The position numbers and the translations under genes are program-made. Under the pieces are notes generated by a model. The model saw only the letters and a program-made list of their open reading frames with translations. It searched no databases and had not been told where the DNA came from. Below, piece after piece: positions 6,045-14,067 of a stretch of DNA of 39,684 nucleotides; within the stretch, counting starts at the first letter, position 1; each line of letters starts with the position of its first letter. The stretch lies in the IMG/VR virus record IMGVR_UViG_2740892027_000001; one strand, given 5' to 3'. This DNA comes from a virus. Taxonomy: Duplodnaviria > Heunggongvirae > Uroviricota > Caudoviricetes.

Positions 6045-6680
6045 ATGCCACAACAACTGCTGAATCCGGCAAAGGTTACTGAAGTTTTCGCTCATCTGAA
6101 CGAAACTCCAGACAACCGCGCCCTGTATTCAGAGTTAGTGAACGGCAACGATGTCACATCTGATGTCAAAGGCGTTTCTCTGGCTCCTGGATACCGCGTT
6201 GTCCGTGTAGACGATCGTAAGAAAGGCGAGATTCCACAGGCGCACTTCGAACTGGCATTGATAAATGACCTCACCGAAGAGGTAGTGTATTACAATCGTG
6301 TCATTATCCAACCTGACAGCTATCTTAACTGCCGACCTGTCACGCAGATATTGGTATGGAGAACCCAGAAGCCTAAGCATCGTGCTGTGCTTCATGATTT
6401 CGCCGGCATCATCTTCATGAACTACCTCTTGGAACGGTACGATATCATCGTGTCAGATCGCAACCAGACTCATGAAGGCATGTCGTTCTGGCAGGCTCGC
6501 ATGTATGACGCACTGGAACTTGGCCTCCACCTCTATGGTTACGACATGATGACATGCGAGCTGATAGAGATGAATAACGAGGAAGAGCTTGAGAAAGGTG
6601 AAACCTGGTTGTGGGGTGATGCGGAAAACTTCCAAAACAGATTGGCCATAATTTCAAAGCATAAGCTGCCAATAAAATAG
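6045..6680 (+). CDS. Hypothetical protein, stand-alone accessory (moron) gene
   Basis: 211 aa, GAGGTG Shine-Dalgarno; own operator-like site upstream and strong terminator downstream; no family recognised by eye. Confidence 0.6.
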   Translation: MPQQLLNPAKVTEVFAHLNETPDNRALYSELVNGNDVTSDVKGVSLAPGYRVVRVDDRKKGEIPQAHFELALINDLTEEVVYYNRVIIQPDSYLNCRPVTQILVWRTQKPKHRAVLHDFAGIIFMNYLLERYDIIVSDRNQTHEGMSFWQARMYDALELGLHLYGYDMMTCELIEMNNEEELEKGETWLWGDAENFQNRLAIISKHKLPIK

Positions 6681-6688
6681 TTCTTTAA

Positions 6689-6709
6689 GCCCGCGGCGCG
6701 GGCTTTTTT
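6689..6709 (+). terminator. Intrinsic terminator (GCCCGCG-g-CGCGGGC + T6)
   Basis: GC-rich hairpin then TTTTTT, 9 nt after the stop of ORF 6045-6680. Confidence 0.7.
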
Positions 6710-6745
6710 GTGTCTGCGGATTCCCGCCCTGGCGGCGGTGGCATT

Positions 6746-6774
6746 CGTTAAAAACAAGGCCGCGAAAGCGGCCT
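6746..6774 (-). terminator. Intrinsic terminator on minus strand (AGGCCGC-tttc-GCGGCCT + TGTTTTTAA)
   Basis: Hairpin directly abuts the GTGACATGTCAC palindrome and follows the stop of ORF 6783-7079. Confidence 0.55.
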
Positions 6775-6786
6775 GTGACATGTCAC
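6775..6786. repeat. 12-bp perfect palindrome GTGACATGTCAC (copy 1 of 3)
   Basis: Identical 12-mer at 24324-24335 and 26589-26600; overlaps the TGA stop of ORF 6783-7079. Confidence 0.7.
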
Positions 6787-7079
6787 GTTCCTTTTCTGAA
6801 TGATAGCCATTCGAAAAATGATGACATTCCACCGCAGACAATAGCAAAGATGATCCCACCAAAGAAGAGAAGGCCAGCCTGCCACCACTCCCACCGCCAT
6901 ACATCCACAGCGCCAACCATACCAACAATCGCTCCAACAAATGGAATATAGCTCACGATGAAAGCAATGGGGGCTGCAATTATCCAGTGCAATCCCCACC
7001 ATGATTCAAGCCCAGCCATAATTGCTGCCAACTGAAAAAGACCAACGACGATATAAACAATGAATCCTATAGCTTGCAT
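6783..7079 (-). CDS. Small integral membrane protein
   Basis: 98 aa, about three hydrophobic helices; between internal virion protein genes and the antirepressor island. Confidence 0.5.
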   Translation of the reverse strand: MQAIGFIVYIVVGLFQLAAIMAGLESWWGLHWIIAAPIAFIVSYIPFVGAIVGMVGAVDVWRWEWWQAGLLFFGGIIFAIVCGGMSSFFEWLSFRKGT

Positions 7080-7274
7080 GTAGTCACCTATTTACCCAGT
7101 AAAAATCAGAGGCCTCCCCTCAATAAGGCTTGCAACAAGAACTACTCCCTGCACAACAAAGATGAACCAGCAAATAGCTTGAGTCTGAGGGTTAAGAAAA
7201 TATTTGTAGCGGTCAATAAATAACAGCCCACCAGAAATTATCACACTCAAAATAATTAAAAACACAACACTTCC

Positions 7275-9749
7275 TTATTGCGGAGTGACATCCTGAGGTC
7301 GCCACCAGTATGTCTGGTTAAACTCTTTCTTCGAACGTTGCTCCATTTTACGCAAATAGCCTGGTGAAAAATACTCCTGCATCTGGTTAAAGATCATGTG
7401 ATCAAGAGCTGCCTTCAAGTACCAGAGATTCGCACCTGGCATCAGCCCTTTCCCAAGTTTCACCAGATCACCACCAGTCTGCTCGTTCTTCCCTTCCACA
7501 GCATTTAATGGTATGCCCTGAGCTATCTTCACTACGTCATCAATCAGGCCAGCTACCGGGCCAAGCATCGACGCCAGCGCGCCGCTTCCGTACCTAGTGT
7601 GATCTGACAATAAAAAGTCACCGTAAAGGCCAAGACCACCACCTTTCAGTAGAGCACCAAGCCAAAATTTAGCAGCATCTTCTCCTGTCATCTCGCGAGG
7701 ATTACGACCAGACGCAAGGTCGTTAAGTTGCTGCGACAAAGCGCCAAGAATGGTCGTACTGGCAATAAACGTCGCAATATATGCCGCACGCCCACCAGCA
7801 GACGGCATACCCATAGCGCGTGACCAGTGACGCATAACCACCGAGATAGGGAACGATTTAAACAGGAAAACACTTCTCGTTAATTCACCTTTCCATGTTC
7901 CACGCTGAATACCAGAACCGGTTATCAGTTGCTCACGTGCTCCCGGTGTAATAACAGCCATATCAACTTCTTCAGTTACGGCACCGAGCAGTTTACGCAT
8001 TGCCTCAAATTTCACGCGTTCAGGCTCACCAAGATGTTTAACTGCTGAATCAGGGATACGCATAATGCTTTCCGGTGTCAGCATCGTATTATTACCGTTC
8101 CCCCAGTCCTCCTGTTGCGCCAGCTTCCATACGCTCCAGTCTGTGTCAGTAATCCCTTTGCTTTTCAGGATACGAAAATCAGAGTCATCGAGGCTACGAA
8201 GGTCTGGTGTCCGTGACACTACTTCTCCCAGGCTTCCCATCATGGTTACGCCATAGGCGCGCTTGTGCGCATCTGACCATGCTGTAAGCCCACTGGCACG
8301 CATTACCGCCGTTGCTGCCCAACGAGACACTGACGGCCCCATATTATCCATCGCCCAGCGGTTAACGCTGCCAAGTAGAGATTCCATTGCCAGACCAGCG
8401 CGGCGCGCCCGCGCAAGTTCTGTACGGTTCGTTGGGTCCATAGCTTCAAGCTGGTTGCGGAATAACTGGTTCATTGGAAGGTTGGTCACCTTCGCAGACA
8501 GATACATGGTTCCAAGATCAGAGAACGATGATAGCAACGCGGATCCGAGTCTGCTGGCAACCAGCCAGTTGCGGATATTGTCAGACCATCGCGCGATGTG
8601 CGGATTCGCTACAGGCTGTGTCTTTCCGGAAATAAAGTTGTACAGATTCTCTGTGTTGTTCGCCAGCCGCTCGACTTTACCGGTTTTACTCGGGTTAGCT
8701 GTTGCCGTTTCTGCCTTAACCTGATCAAGAAGGGAGCGGAAAACATGATCGGGGTTTGGACCATATGTTTCCACCAGAGCAATATCTTTACTGATACCTT
8801 CCAGGTGACCGACCATGATTTCCCATAGAGAGCGATCGCCATAAAGTTGTTGATATTGGAGATAGGAATCAGCATCTTTGAAATGTATCTGTCGTGATGC
8901 ATTACCACGGTTAGCACGTGCGCCGGAAATTCGCATTCCGGTATCAGTAAGCTTATTCAGCCCACCAGTAGCGATCGTGTTATAAGCCTCTCCAAGAAAT
9001 GCAGACAACTCGGCACCGTTCATCAGTTGTCCATCGGCTCGGGTATAATATTTGCGATCCAGCTTACCTATAACATCGTTAACCCACTTATCCTTTGATA
9101 CCGCCCCAACCTTTTCCATAGAATGATGTTGAGGGATCCCCCAGTTTTCGAGATAGCCAATGTCCCCACCAGCATCATTAAACCGGCGGCGCAGCAGCTC
9201 TGTAACTTCTCTCCACGCCTTAGCACCTTTTCTTGCTTTAGCATTGCCAGTATTTTGCCCCCGCATTTCATATACCAGGTCACGTACGCCCGCTTCATCT
9301 TCAAACAGACCAAAAAAGCGAGGATCAACTGCTTCGAATGCCTCCTGCAATTGACTCAATGCATAATCACGGGTGGCTTTTGTTCTGGATTCAACAGAGA
9401 GGAAATTAGATTTACCGTCTGCATTAAAAGCTATAGTACGGTTAAGAGCGCCAAGTTTCCCATCAGCCCCTTGATAGCTATTGATAAATTTATCCAATCT
9501 CTGACGCGCGGCTATAGTGAGAGCCACACGACGTTTCTTTAATGCCGCTTCTCGCTGTAATTCTTCAGATGCCAATTGTGCTGCTCGATATAGCCGCTCT
9601 GATTCGGAAAGTTGTCGCCACGACATCGGGTCATCACGAGCAATGGAGCGCATATTTCGATAAATGCGGTCTTCAATGTTCTGTATTTCTCGCGCCGTTA
9701 ACATGCGCTGCGCCGCCTGCTGAACCGCCTGTATACATTCCTGTCTCAT
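7275..9749 (-). CDS. Internal virion (ejection/core) protein, large
   Basis: 824 aa; position in a T7-like gp14-gp16 block after the tail tube genes; no enzymatic motif confirmed. Confidence 0.55.
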   Translation of the reverse strand: MRQECIQAVQQAAQRMLTAREIQNIEDRIYRNMRSIARDDPMSWRQLSESERLYRAAQLASEELQREAALKKRRVALTIAARQRLDKFINSYQGADGKLGALNRTIAFNADGKSNFLSVESRTKATRDYALSQLQEAFEAVDPRFFGLFEDEAGVRDLVYEMRGQNTGNAKARKGAKAWREVTELLRRRFNDAGGDIGYLENWGIPQHHSMEKVGAVSKDKWVNDVIGKLDRKYYTRADGQLMNGAELSAFLGEAYNTIATGGLNKLTDTGMRISGARANRGNASRQIHFKDADSYLQYQQLYGDRSLWEIMVGHLEGISKDIALVETYGPNPDHVFRSLLDQVKAETATANPSKTGKVERLANNTENLYNFISGKTQPVANPHIARWSDNIRNWLVASRLGSALLSSFSDLGTMYLSAKVTNLPMNQLFRNQLEAMDPTNRTELARARRAGLAMESLLGSVNRWAMDNMGPSVSRWAATAVMRASGLTAWSDAHKRAYGVTMMGSLGEVVSRTPDLRSLDDSDFRILKSKGITDTDWSVWKLAQQEDWGNGNNTMLTPESIMRIPDSAVKHLGEPERVKFEAMRKLLGAVTEEVDMAVITPGAREQLITGSGIQRGTWKGELTRSVFLFKSFPISVVMRHWSRAMGMPSAGGRAAYIATFIASTTILGALSQQLNDLASGRNPREMTGEDAAKFWLGALLKGGGLGLYGDFLLSDHTRYGSGALASMLGPVAGLIDDVVKIAQGIPLNAVEGKNEQTGGDLVKLGKGLMPGANLWYLKAALDHMIFNQMQEYFSPGYLRKMEQRSKKEFNQTYWWRPQDVTPQ

Positions 9750-9754
9750 TTAAT

Positions 9755-11557
9755 TTAACCTCTCAAGAAACACGCCACAGCGACATCAAACAGGCTGGAA
9801 TCCTGTATTGCCTGCTCACTTTCCCTGTTCGCTTCATCCAGTACTTCACGCGCACTGCGCGATTGTGGATTACCATCATCATCCAGCACGGTGATTATCA
9901 TGTCAGGTGATTCAAGCAGCGAGTCTTCAGCTATACGCAGATCAATATCTCCTGCCGGATCTGCCATCATTTTTTGTTCTGTCTGTTGCAATATCTTACC
10001 GGGCTCAAAAGGAGCTACTTCGTCTGGCGTCCTGACCTCTGCTGTTTTATAGAATGAAACAGCCTGAGCATTAAGTTCACTTTCTGCCTGCTGTCGTCGT
10101 GCCAGTTCTGCTCGAGCTTCAAAAAACTGACCGCCAGGCTCATGCGGTGCCAACGCGTTACGGGAAAATTCCAGGCGCTCTTGTGCCTGCCGGATTCGTT
10201 GGTCAATATCGCGAAGTCTGACCTGTTTATCTGATCGAGCACGAGACAAAGCTTTACCGCTACCGGTTGGCTCTTCTGCAAGAATTTGTGCGCGCTGTTC
10301 AGTGAGATTTTCAATAATTCGTTGGCTATTAGCGATTTCAGACTGGTAAACCTGTCTATCGCCACGCGGCAAAAGCTGCGCGGCCTGTTCTTCAAGCAAC
10401 CGATTTTCTATAGCGCGCGCCGTTACTCCATCATCTACAGATGACAGAGCCTCATTAACTGCCTGAGACAGCAGACTCTTGCGCCCAGGAATTTCACTGA
10501 AAGATGCAGACTCAACAATGCTGGCAACGTCTACAGGTCTCCCCTGGCTAACATCAGACATAGCTTTTCGCAGAGCCTGAATGTGAGAATTGCGCGAAAG
10601 CACGTTGATCGGCACGCCGGGCGCAATATCAATTTCAGCATGATGAGCGGCATTCGCCGCCAGTGCAGCATCAACATCAACTGGTGAAAAATTTGGTGCG
10701 CTTGTAGACTCGCCGCGAGAGTTCATAAATCTGCCGACACCACCAAACGCCACCCCAAGAACAGCATCAATAGCAATTGCCTGTCGATCCAACACATCAT
10801 ACTGGTTAGCCATTTCGCTATAGCCACCATCACGAAGCGTTTTTGCAGTAAGCCCACGCTGTGCCATACCGAACGCAATATTTGTACCTGCGGCATAGGC
10901 AATATCTGGCGTTGCACGCACTGCTGTTGCTGCGGCGCGTCGCACTGAACTTTCACCCGTCCGCGCAAGCTGGGCCGCCACACCTTCCGCCAGCGCACCA
11001 CCAGCACGTAACCCGAGGCTCATAGGGATCAGTGTTCCGGCACCAGCAGTAATACCCTGCACTAATCCCGCTTCCTGCGCCGTCCTGAAATCAACACCCT
11101 GTGCTGTCAGCCGTTCAAACTCAGAAAAACCCTGTAGAGAAGTTACCGCCGCAGCACCTCCGACCGGACCACCGAGCGTTGTACCGACAACAGCCTGCCC
11201 TCCCATATCGAACAACCCATAAAGGACCTGCCCGGCGGTTCCGGTTGTCGCGGCATCAGGCGTCAGCCGCTTAACCTGCTGCTCTGCTAGTTTTCTCTGC
11301 TCAGCAATGTATGAAACTGAAGTGTCATTAAGCGAGGTGTTTTCGTTAACAAACTGAGCAATCGGGGATACGATTTTATCCATCCCTGCCCATAGCAACT
11401 GATCTGGCTTTGCCACCAGCCCGGAGTACAAACCAGACAATGCCGCTCCTACAGCATTGTCGAAAAAACCAACATTGCTGTTAAAGCCAGCTGGATTTGA
11501 TGCTGCTTCGTCAAGCTGCTGATTCTGGCTTACTGGATTAAGGCCAAAGTAACTCAT
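9755..11557 (-). CDS. Internal virion (ejection/core) protein
   Basis: 600 aa, Ala/Gly-rich with coiled-coil C-terminus; co-oriented in internal-protein block. Confidence 0.5.
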   Translation of the reverse strand: MSYFGLNPVSQNQQLDEAASNPAGFNSNVGFFDNAVGAALSGLYSGLVAKPDQLLWAGMDKIVSPIAQFVNENTSLNDTSVSYIAEQRKLAEQQVKRLTPDAATTGTAGQVLYGLFDMGGQAVVGTTLGGPVGGAAAVTSLQGFSEFERLTAQGVDFRTAQEAGLVQGITAGAGTLIPMSLGLRAGGALAEGVAAQLARTGESSVRRAAATAVRATPDIAYAAGTNIAFGMAQRGLTAKTLRDGGYSEMANQYDVLDRQAIAIDAVLGVAFGGVGRFMNSRGESTSAPNFSPVDVDAALAANAAHHAEIDIAPGVPINVLSRNSHIQALRKAMSDVSQGRPVDVASIVESASFSEIPGRKSLLSQAVNEALSSVDDGVTARAIENRLLEEQAAQLLPRGDRQVYQSEIANSQRIIENLTEQRAQILAEEPTGSGKALSRARSDKQVRLRDIDQRIRQAQERLEFSRNALAPHEPGGQFFEARAELARRQQAESELNAQAVSFYKTAEVRTPDEVAPFEPGKILQQTEQKMMADPAGDIDLRIAEDSLLESPDMIITVLDDDGNPQSRSAREVLDEANRESEQAIQDSSLFDVAVACFLRG

Positions 11558-14067
11558 TGCGGAATATCTCCGGAGAATCTCTGACGTTTCTGTGTCAGAT
11601 TAAGAACAACGGGAGAACCATCATCTTTCAGCAGATAACCAGTACCAAGTTTCACCAGGTACTGACTATCGCCGTAACTTTGCAAACCATACTGACCAGG
11701 CGGTGTTTTTATCCCGGAGCCGACAACTTGTTCATTCCAAGCCTGATTAACCTGCTTATCGAATTGCTCTGCAGACATTCCCCACGGCAAAAGGACATTC
11801 CCCATTCCGTTATAGTCATGCACGCCACCTGTAGCTACGTTAACAGCCTGTTTCCAGACATCATTGTCAATTTCGCCTGATACCACGCCTTTTTTCGCCA
11901 TCACACCAGCGTAATAGTCCTTTGCGATCTCGTATGCCATTGATGCCCCCTGAGCATCACCAGCAAATGCATCCTTCACCATGTCAGAAAACTCAAGGCG
12001 AAGATCAGCATCTTTAGGCATCGGAATACCTTTCGCATCATCAGTACCTTTACGAGCCGCCGCGCCAGCAAGAATTGTCTGCGCAGCGGTTTCAGGAGAC
12101 ACGGAAACATCCGGATTAAACCAGTTTTTTTCTGCCAAAATACCACCAGGCTTGTCCATCAGTATCCCGGCAACGGCAGCAGATGGAGCGTTGGCACTGA
12201 TCTGCTGTAGTGCTGACATATACACCTGCCCACCACCAGTGCTCTGCCTGATGGTATCGAGATATGCTGCCTGTTGGGAAACTGGAGCATCACGAAAGAA
12301 AACACCGATCTGATTGGCCTCGTCTTTGGAAAAGAACGTCAGTGGAGTGCCATATGACTTAGCAAGGTCACTGACCTGAGCAGCACGCAAGGCAACGCTC
12401 TGTCCAAAGTTATCCTTATTGCTCATGTCGATAGGCTTTGCCTGTCCGGCGGCAAGAGAGAACTGTACAGGATCAGCCTGTCTCTGCTTTATCACCTGAC
12501 TTGCAGCAGACACAACGTTGTCATAAAGAGCGGCTCGTGCCGCATAACCCTCCCCTGTCTCACCAGTATCCGGGCGTAATTGCTCAACATATGCTGTAAT
12601 GCTGCTTGTCGGCATGTTGCGGAAAGAGCCTATATACTGTCCGGCGATTTGCGTATTTCTGAACTCGGTATATCGCAGGTTTCCTTCTCTGACTCCATAA
12701 GCTGCAATAAAATCAGCCTCACCAGGTGGGTTAGGAAATTCAACGCCACGCATATACGCAGCTGTCGCATCGCGAACTTGGCTGTCAATCATCGTTTTAT
12801 ATTCAGCCTGCTGCTGCCGACGCAGTTGATCCGCCTGTCGCATAAAACTTGCCTGCGCCTCAGGAGATGCCGCATCGAATGCTGCATTACCGGTATAGCG
12901 TTTGGTGTTGGTTGGAATTGTTGATAAACCAAGTGCTGCACTGACACCAGCAGTTAACTGCTGATCACTGTATGGCTGGCTACCGTTCTCATGATGGATA
13001 ATGGCTGCACAAAGCGCCTTCAGGGTATCAGGATTAGATGCATCGAGAGGCTCATCAGCAGAAACGCCAAGTTGTTCGCACACTGCTTTGATATACGACA
13101 TAGTGTCATTTTTATCAGTAGGCGGTGCCCAGCGATTAATTATCTCGCTGACGGTATCAATACCCTGTCTCTGATACGACATCAGGTTCCGCCCTAATGC
13201 ACGAATCCCGTGTTCAGGTGTTTCGAATTTAGCAAATCGACCATCATCACCGGTCTGGCCTACCCACGGATTGGTTTTGCTGTATTCGAGATTTCCTGGG
13301 TTATTGTTGCGTATGCCACGGGCACGCTCGGAAGAATCACTATCTGCTACAGCACGGCGAGCTCCAGCAGCAGTATCACTTAACTCGCCATTACTTTGGA
13401 TGAATGCGGTCGCATTGTTTGCCGACCACTGGGACAATGCTGCATCAGCAACCTTCTCTTTAAACTCGATTTTCTTGGCCTGGATTTGCTCGTCGCTCCA
13501 GCCATGCGCAATGCCGTAATCCTCAATTTGCTGGAAAGTTTGCTTATTAGCCAATACGTATGCGGCGTTGTCGCCATACAATGCTGCGGCATTTTTACCA
13601 TTGTTCAGCAGCGTAGCCTGAAACTGGCCTTCTTCGTAGGCATTTATTTGCCCTATCTCGTGCCGCCCGGCCTGCGTAGTGAACTGAATGCGCTGCTGCT
13701 GCGCCTGCTGCATGAAAGCATTACGAGCCTGTTCATCCGGCAGCGACATAGCCAGTTGCTCGACCTTGGCATCAAACTGCTGCGTATACTCCTGACCTTT
13801 TCCAATAGCATTTTTCCCTTTCAGGTTAAGCAAACCTGTTTCAGGGTTATTCAGCAGATCGCTGCTTATCTGGCTTAAGCTAAGAGAAGCATCCTGAGCC
13901 ATAGCAACATTCGCACGCTGTTTTGCCTGCGCAATAATACCTGCATATTGCTCTGCAACATCGCCAAGTACATCACCGACATTTGGTGTCTGAAACGATG
14001 AGAATCCCTGCGTCGAAATCCCTCTGCTCTGAACCTGACGGCCCGATGTTGTTGGTACAACTGGCAT
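11554..14067 (-). CDS. Internal virion (ejection/core) protein with conserved central domain
   Basis: 837 aa; central block RGIRNNNPGNLEYSK...FETPEHGIRALGRNLMSYQ looks like a conserved globular domain; overlaps neighbours by 4 nt. Confidence 0.55.
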   Translation of the reverse strand: MPVVPTTSGRQVQSRGISTQGFSSFQTPNVGDVLGDVAEQYAGIIAQAKQRANVAMAQDASLSLSQISSDLLNNPETGLLNLKGKNAIGKGQEYTQQFDAKVEQLAMSLPDEQARNAFMQQAQQQRIQFTTQAGRHEIGQINAYEEGQFQATLLNNGKNAAALYGDNAAYVLANKQTFQQIEDYGIAHGWSDEQIQAKKIEFKEKVADAALSQWSANNATAFIQSNGELSDTAAGARRAVADSDSSERARGIRNNNPGNLEYSKTNPWVGQTGDDGRFAKFETPEHGIRALGRNLMSYQRQGIDTVSEIINRWAPPTDKNDTMSYIKAVCEQLGVSADEPLDASNPDTLKALCAAIIHHENGSQPYSDQQLTAGVSAALGLSTIPTNTKRYTGNAAFDAASPEAQASFMRQADQLRRQQQAEYKTMIDSQVRDATAAYMRGVEFPNPPGEADFIAAYGVREGNLRYTEFRNTQIAGQYIGSFRNMPTSSITAYVEQLRPDTGETGEGYAARAALYDNVVSAASQVIKQRQADPVQFSLAAGQAKPIDMSNKDNFGQSVALRAAQVSDLAKSYGTPLTFFSKDEANQIGVFFRDAPVSQQAAYLDTIRQSTGGGQVYMSALQQISANAPSAAVAGILMDKPGGILAEKNWFNPDVSVSPETAAQTILAGAAARKGTDDAKGIPMPKDADLRLEFSDMVKDAFAGDAQGASMAYEIAKDYYAGVMAKKGVVSGEIDNDVWKQAVNVATGGVHDYNGMGNVLLPWGMSAEQFDKQVNQAWNEQVVGSGIKTPPGQYGLQSYGDSQYLVKLGTGYLLKDDGSPVVLNLTQKRQRFSGDIPQ

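Follow-up and report, generated by a model that had tools for sequence, protein, structure and literature searches.

What two very small membrane proteins do between the ejection-type genes and the antirepressor island of a phage was the question raised by a stretch of viral DNA of 39,684 nucleotides (nt) (IMG/VR record IMGVR_UViG_2740892027_000001; "the window" means this whole stretch). The two open reading frames (ORFs), named ORF-A and ORF-B here, lay in the interval 6783-7274 on the minus strand, directly 3' of an ORF of 824 amino acids (aa) for a gp17-like virion protein. A preliminary description, made from the letters alone, had compared them with the superinfection exclusion gene sieA of phage P22 and had offered O-antigen conversion as another possibility. 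The interval between gp17 and the terminator behaves like an accessory hot spot and is a two-position slot for variable cassettes, which in the window was occupied by ORF-A and ORF-B. As to their function, the best guess, and a tentative one, is that they are accessory inner-membrane proteins excluding superinfecting phages.

Both genes were already present in the databases as hypothetical proteins, ORF-B within phrog_3075. New here are an account of the slot, corrected limits for ORF-A and the properties of the ORF-B family. Literature searches on ORF-B, its PHROG, phiV10p21/epsilon15 gp18 and exclusion in Uetakevirus found nothing on the gp17-terminator locus, and the slot locus was not discussed in the ZX5 paper. 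The coordinates of the features are collected in Table 1.

A variable slot between the gp17-like gene and the terminator

Homology of the window to phiV10 and ZX5 broke at the stop codon and Shine-Dalgarno (SD) sequence at the end of gp17, at about 7271-7275, and resumed at about 6787-6791, just past the stop codon of ORF-B. Homology breakpoints in relatives placed the boundary of the ORF-B module at about 7091-7094. A block of about 55 nt downstream of the slot was the same in phiV10, ZX5 and E. coli 4/1-1, whose cassettes differ. Its strong terminator was formed by the G+C-rich hairpin AGGCCGCTTTCGCGGCCT (6774..6757, stem AGGCCGC-TTTC-GCGGCCT) and a following TGTTTTT.

The slot was filled by a 46-aa protein with two transmembrane (TM) helices in phiV10 and SPN1S, the 64-aa two-TM gp18 in epsilon15, a 103-aa two-TM protein in Tyrion, a 126-aa predicted lipoprotein with an LVGC lipobox in ZX5, and ORF-A with ORF-B in BUCT711. 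Among 80 IMG/VR loci, which had been selected for carrying ORF-B, ORF-A and ORF-B stood together in 65, while 15 had another first gene, encoding a 103-aa membrane protein, a 102-aa/123-aa or 175-aa signal-peptide protein, or a 54-aa two-TM protein. ORF-A was also found without ORF-B, its partner then being the ZX5-type lipoprotein or a 92-aa two-TM protein; ORF-A is an independent cassette, which pairs with various second genes. About eleven distinct and unrelated occupants were recognized, all of them membrane proteins, lipoproteins or secreted proteins according to their TM helices, lipobox or signal peptide, and it is very unlikely that such an all-envelope occupancy would arise by chance. 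Nine alternative proteins of the slot, scanned against PHROG and Pfam, matched only families of unknown function. In base composition, ORF-A had a GC content of ~0.39-0.42 against ~0.50 for gp17, and ORF-B, with ~0.48-0.51, was not different from gp17.

A perfect 12-bp palindrome, GTGACATGTCAC (6775-6786), overlapped the stop codon of ORF-B, directly preceded the terminator and recurred in a Klebsiella oxytoca prophage. The palindrome and the conserved block may serve as an anchor for recombination or may bind a protein. A LexA box at the palindrome was considered and rejected, with an imperfect match to CTGT-N8-ACAG and a site between the 3' ends of convergent genes. The slot lipoprotein (126/127 aa, lipobox LVGC, phrog_3716) was observed in ZX5 (L084, 133-513) and in a Salmonella Muenchen prophage (L105, 4421-4804), and in form it recalls phage lipoproteins of the Cor, Llp and Bor type.

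Independence and conservation of ORF-B

ORF-B was 94-100% identical in loci whose gp17 was just 23-26% identical to that of the window (L040, L052-L056 and L067). Phages with a great variety of tailspike receptor domains and hosts shared it at 89-100% identity; in most loci, the tailspike matched that of the window over no more than its N-terminal 160-250 aa. ORF-B does not move together with gp17 or with the tailspike. Because it was absent from phiV10, epsilon15, SPN1S and ZX5 (and from Tyrion too), ORF-B is, judged from these genomes, dispensable for this type of phage. In pairs of loci with gp17 86-88% identical, the non-synonymous divergence (dN) of ORF-B was 0.036-0.065, against ~0.10 for gp17 and ~0.20 for gp16, which was 2-5 fold below the neighbouring virion genes of the same pairs. 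The exact cassette was present in 205 of the 5,426 complete E. coli genomes (~4%).

At an identity of at least 79%, ORF-B stood 3' of the gp17-like gene, directly or after one small gene, wherever the region was present. At 52-61% identity, the homologue lay directly after the last large internal-virion gene (849 aa and 833 aa) in Cronobacter and Salmonella prophages. Relatives of 48-59% identity were found elsewhere, namely beside integrase and Bro-N genes as a transcription unit of their own, after an opposite-strand gene in another podophage, and among insertion sequence elements. Within the Enterobacterales, every close relative examined sat in a podophage or prophage accessory region.

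Coding status and limits of the two genes

The preliminary description had placed a non-ATG ORF of 51 aa at about 7095-7250. This ORF proved to be real, non-ATG and often unannotated, with limits that were wrong, for the TTG at 7250 chosen as its start is codon 6 of the 57-aa ORF-A, which begins with GTG. At the homologous position of related IMG/VR loci the start codon was GTG in 44 of 65 and TTG in the other 21, and in the K. oxytoca prophage it was ATG; the length of 57 aa was adopted because this start position is fixed across relatives. Homologues of ORF-A among database proteins formed 13 clusters of 56-58 aa. It was fair to call the ORF unannotated, since ORF-A is missing from several annotations, such as those of RefSeq E. 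coli 4/1-1, phiv142-3 and BUCT711. The three genes are closely packed, with 9 nt from the gp17 stop to the ORF-A start and 12 nt from the ORF-A stop to the ORF-B ATG, and the SD sequence of ORF-A shares bases with the gp17 stop codon TAA (7277..7275).

Homologues of ORF-B formed 52 clusters with 48-99% identity, from Escherichia, Klebsiella, Cronobacter, Dickeya, Yersinia, Kosakonia and Salmonella. Against diverged copies, the ratio of non-synonymous to synonymous divergence (dN/dS) of ORF-B was 0.014-0.057, in comparisons with synonymous sites near saturation (dS 1.5-2.8) and just 6-26 non-synonymous changes; for ORF-A the ratio was 0.18-0.26. By their sequence signatures, both are real genes under purifying selection and look expressed. 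In phiv142-3, the ORF-B homologue Orf12 (L001, 6071-6427) was annotated with 118 aa from a start about 60 nt too far upstream, which looks like a mis-called start.

Membrane topology and the wider ORF-B family

Both proteins had been described as small membrane proteins, ORF-B with about three TM helices, and their reading as small proteins of inner-membrane type agreed with hydropathy and with the AlphaFold2 model of ORF-B (mean pLDDT 90.9, built from 29 homologues). Kyte-Doolittle peaks (19-residue windows) were at residues 3-21, 33-51 and 70-88, and the modelled helices covered 2-28, 32-42/46-59 with a kink at the invariant P46, and 65-97; ORF-B was assigned three TM helices because the two results agree. 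ORF-A was a two-helix hairpin by hydropathy. The sole cluster of Lys and Arg in ORF-B was at its C-terminal tail (mean 2.9 K+R), so that the positive-inside rule predicts an N-out/C-in topology, and the Trp-rich loop DVWRWEWWQ would therefore face the periplasm. Residues Q16, A19, P46, G49, G53, G56, A57, W61, W63 and F72 were conserved family-wide, forming a GxxxGxxGA helix-packing motif in TM2 and then WxW.

The match of ORF-B to phrog_3075 was full-length (E 1.6e-54, residues 1-98 on profile positions 1-98). A profile search gave 749 representatives at E<=1e-3, 320 of them at E<=1e-10, and no meaningful name for the family was found across the sources. Members occurred in Microvirga, Buttiauxella, Desulfovibrio and Thermoflexus, with neighbours that included genes for aconitase, MutS and UmuC, and some were fused to DUF805 or RDD membrane domains, which are themselves of unknown function. 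In one metagenomic protein (P0059, 427 aa) the ORF-B domain was repeated three to four times in tandem within a single chain. With three TM helices in each repeat, neighbouring repeats would be inserted in opposite orientations, and the repeats give a hint that single-domain members may work as oligomers.

Nothing significant was found for ORF-A or ORF-B in Pfam and NCBIfam scans, a Pfam scan of 54 diverse family members gave no shared family, and PADLOC gave no match at E<=1 for ORF-A, ORF-B or the convergent 211-aa protein. Fold searches with the confident ORF-B model returned nothing specific.

Phage type and position

The region of the window was 97-99% identical to the Uetakevirus genomes HEMP4 and phiv142-3, and its flanks matched phiV10, epsilon15-type Salmonella phages, Tyrion and BUCT711. 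By genome comparison the phage is therefore a Uetakevirus of the epsilon15/phiV10 type and not, as had been supposed at first, P22-like. The supposed location, between ejection-type genes and an antirepressor island, was confirmed by the gene neighbourhood: upstream stood the gp17-like gene, the last of a gp15/16/17 trio of internal-virion or ejection type, and on the other side a convergent Bro-N/antirepressor (Ant) island.

This is the same relative place as that of sieA, as the preliminary description had said. On the P22 map, sieA comes directly after gene 16, ahead of the mnt/arc/ant region and gene 9. It is encoded on the opposite strand, and its promoter has been mapped. SieA is a protein of the inner membrane, of 162-164 aa with three TM segments, which acts on the gp16/gp20 ejection conduit (PMC10883804). 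ORF-B is likewise small, with three predicted TM helices, and has the last ejection-type gene on one side and an antirepressor region and the tailspike gene on the other.

Expression

ORF-A and ORF-B shared the strand of gp17 and were SD-coupled to it. Promoter scans, which have low power, gave no upstream sigma-70 site at >=9/12; over about 800 nt upstream the sole promoter-like element was a weak extended -10, TGTGATAAT (7245..7237), inside ORF-A. Scans of the other cassette types gave no consistent promoter upstream of ORF-B. Because of the lack of a convincing promoter together with the co-orientation and SD coupling, co-transcription with the late virion operon is taken as the default reading.

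Possible functions of the slot proteins

Exclusion at the inner membrane, at a conserved step of genome entry, was tentatively preferred because ORF-B is dispensable, located in the envelope, placed in a hot spot where envelope proteins are swapped, and independent of the receptor. In such a mechanism, ORF-A and ORF-B would both insert into the inner membrane, the Trp-rich loop of ORF-B facing the periplasm and its basic tail the cytoplasm. ORF-B would probably self-associate through its glycine-zipper-like TM2 and would bind a conserved partner, which could be a component of the host inner membrane or the membrane-inserting part of an incoming ejection complex, and this binding would stop the genome of the superinfecting phage from crossing the inner membrane. 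The effect would be the same as that of P22 SieA, T4 Imm or HK97 gp15, reached with an unrelated protein, and expression would most likely come from the late operon transcript. The integrase- and Bro-N-adjacent relatives of ORF-B stand in the usual place of prophage conversion and exclusion genes, and the surrounding accessory island, with Ant/Bro-N genes and in Cronobacter a HicAB module, also supports exclusion. So does P22, whose inner-membrane exclusion gene has the same relative position and acts on ejection proteins (PMC10883804).

Several results weigh against exclusion. ORF-B had no similarity to known exclusion proteins (only phrog_3075 was matched, PADLOC gave no match, and SieA came with E=20), and no convincing promoter for the lysogen was found for genes that are SD-coupled on the strand of the late genes. 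The dN/dS of ORF-B, about 0.02, is unlike that of a usual arms-race protein. Distant relatives stand beside housekeeping genes in non-phage contexts, and such neighbours suggest a cellular function, not necessarily a phage-related one.

Some known systems are comparable in arrangement. The unit stood between conserved neighbours in some relatives and was absent or replaced in others, as is the case for a moron. The moron gp15 of HK97 and the lambda genes bor and lom are reportedly accessory envelope genes embedded in late operons. They resemble ORF-A and ORF-B in being small envelope-protein genes between conserved late genes, in occurring in only some relatives and in having a terminator after them; they differ in lacking homology and in being single insertions, whereas here two positions are filled by many alternative occupants. 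Classical morons have a promoter of their own; for ORF-A and ORF-B, the low-power scans gave no convincing one. T4 Imm, an early gene product of a virulent phage, falls in a similar size class, is likewise located in the membrane and has a similar proposed effect on the entry of the genome; it has no homology to ORF-B.

A captured cellular function for ORF-B is possible but doubtful. ORF-B would then be a cellular small membrane protein acting in host membrane physiology (an oligomeric channel, a transport-like or an envelope-homeostasis module), carried as cargo that aids the lysogen or the infected cell, and would have no action on other phages. The size of the family, its members beside aconitase, MutS and UmuC genes, the DUF805/RDD fusions and the tandem copies in one protein agree with it, as do the conserved GxxxGxxGA and Trp motifs and a dN well below that of the virion neighbours. 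The close Enterobacterales relatives examined, however, all sat in podophage or prophage accessory regions, and the other proteins of the slot are envelope proteins that are swapped rapidly, as conflict genes typically are.

Superinfection exclusion could also be pictured more specifically. The slot would be a dedicated, recombination-anchored, two-position array of interchangeable envelope proteins, an "entry-gate" hot spot, where an inner-membrane oligomer of the ORF-B family, made from the late operon and not from a prophage promoter, jams the ejection channel of incoming podophages as an independent analogue of SieA. In this specific form the proposal is rather unlikely.

Late-lytic membrane proteins, made along with the virion proteins and acting in lysis timing or like an antiholin, in membrane depolarisation, or in blocking the injection of progeny into infected cells or debris, are an unlikely explanation for ORF-A and ORF-B. 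The late-operon arrangement would fit (gp17 strand, spacing of 9-12 nt, SD coupling, no autonomous sigma-70 promoter, no consistent one in other cassette types). ORF-B also resembles class I holins of the lambda S type in its length of ~100 aa, three TM helices, predicted N-out/C-in topology and basic C-terminus, and it matched Phage_holin_5_2 weakly (E 0.027). That match stayed far below the Pfam threshold (15.2 bits against a cut-off of 29.2 bits), and only 1 of the 54 family members matched the model. Unlike class I holins, ORF-B lies outside the lysis cassette, which is already complete elsewhere in the window (Table 1), and has no dual-start motif. Its homologues in ordinary chromosomal, non-phage contexts and next to integrase genes argue against a toxic lysis protein, and many viable relatives do without ORF-B.

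ORF-A and ORF-B might alternatively help the phage itself, in genome delivery or in assembly. They could assist gp17 as its membrane chaperone or partner, or be a small component that is part of the virion or ejected. The position of ORF-B 3' of the gp17-like gene in close relatives, and after the last large internal-virion gene also in the Cronobacter and Salmonella prophages, would suit this. It is distinctly improbable, given that phiV10, epsilon15, SPN1S, Tyrion and ZX5 all have the same gp17 and no ORF-B, that ORF-B is unchanged beside a replacement gp17 of only ~24% identity, that more distant relatives lie away from any gp17, and that a three-TM protein is unlikely as a virion component.

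O-antigen or serotype conversion by ORF-A or ORF-B, for example as a small inhibitor of the Wzy polymerase, had been proposed as the alternative to exclusion and is very unlikely. Small two-TM inhibitors of the O-antigen polymerase do exist in the genus, such as the alpha-polymerase inhibitor of epsilon15 (epsilon15_p02, 66 aa, two TM domains), and in the window the tailspike gene was followed by no oac, wzy or gtr gene. The conversion genes of the genus (the epsilon15 inhibitor and phiV10 Oac), however, lie 3' of the tailspike gene and not after gp17, and they are serotype-linked; Wzy and O-antigens are serotype-specific, whereas ORF-B hardly varied among phages with many tailspike types or between those of E. 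coli and Klebsiella. ORF-B moreover co-occurs with GtrB/GtrC-type genes in Cronobacter prophages, and family scans gave no sequence similarity to conversion proteins.

Membership of ORF-B in the SieA family itself, for which only the comparable place on the map and the prediction of three TM helices would speak, is effectively refuted at the sequence level, since BLASTP against P22 SieA gave E=20 (no similarity), ORF-B has 98 aa and ORF-A 57 aa against ~162-164 aa for SieA and ~160-200 aa for its family, the conserved cytoplasmic motif FxRYPxEAxxFNK of that family (PMC10883804) is absent from both, and ORF-B, in a phage of another type, is co-oriented with the ejection genes where sieA is convergent with its own mapped promoter. 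Of the first comparison with P22, a loose positional analogy is what stands.

Neighbouring genes

The gene order upstream was tail protein, two "internal virion proteins", gp15-like, gp16-like and gp17-like, and from this T7-like layout it is reasonable to regard the gp15/16/17-like genes as ejection-protein genes. Residues 249-398 of the gp15-like protein were a lysozyme/transglycosylase-type domain, which matched an endolysin of solved structure and a phage Gp29 chain of 1295 aa and would fit an ejected, peptidoglycan-cutting internal virion protein. Searches of PDB sequences gave no match for gp16 or gp17, and gp15 was matched only through this domain.

The convergent 211-aa protein had no match in Pfam or NCBIfam. 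Of the 80 related loci, just 2 had identical copies, while several others had versions of about 30% identity; because of this patchy occurrence, its gene is read as another mobile accessory gene of the Ant island. In the window this gene, with its terminator, has replaced the 5' part of an ORF for a 53-aa signal-peptide protein (WP_000708858), which is intact in other genomes and is called "transmembrane anchored protein" in TL-2011b and BUCT711. In the same island of Cronobacter prophages (L089-L091, 6362-6820), a HicA toxin/DUF1902 (HicB-like) pair lay directly downstream of the ORF-B homologue.

Table 1. Positions of ORF-A, ORF-B and surrounding features in the window
Feature	Position	Strand	Remarks
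ORF-B	7079..6783	minus	98 aa, ATG start; three-helix membrane protein, phrog_3075
SD sequence of ORF-B, AGGTGA	7084..7089	minus	4 nt before ATG; read from the sequence
ORF-A	7265..7092	minus	57 aa, GTG start; two-helix membrane hairpin, often unannotated
SD sequence of ORF-A, AAGGAAG	7270..7276	minus	4 nt before GTG; read from the sequence
Downstream slot anchor	6733..6787		~55 nt, conserved; holds the terminator and the 12-bp palindrome
Rho-independent terminator	6747..6774	minus	ends the virion/ejection-protein operon
gp17-like virion structural protein	7275..9749	minus	824 aa, phrog_684; upstream slot anchor
gp15-like protein	11554-14067	minus	837 aa, annotated "head protein"
3' remnant of 53-aa signal-peptide ORF	6713-6751	plus	WP_000708858
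Second terminator	6687-6705		opposite-facing; ends the convergent plus-strand gene
211-aa protein	6045-6680	plus	phrog_1349; convergent with ORF-B
Lysis cassette	~128-1925	minus	two holin-family genes (phrog_198, phrog_217), endolysin, Rz/Rz1

Meaning for phage and host biology

Klebsiella, Salmonella and Cronobacter often harbour related prophages. Should the proteins of the slot control phage entry, they would shape the competition among prophages and the host range of therapeutic phages, and they would offer a second, independent handle, besides P22 SieA, on the way in which podophage ejection proteins cross the inner membrane. If the picture of an entry-gate slot is true, ORF-B, the most conserved of its occupants, would found a large, unnamed family of three-TM proteins with a glycine zipper and a Trp loop. 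Phage biology aside, ORF-B marks a widespread and highly constrained family of small membrane proteins for which Pfam has no model.

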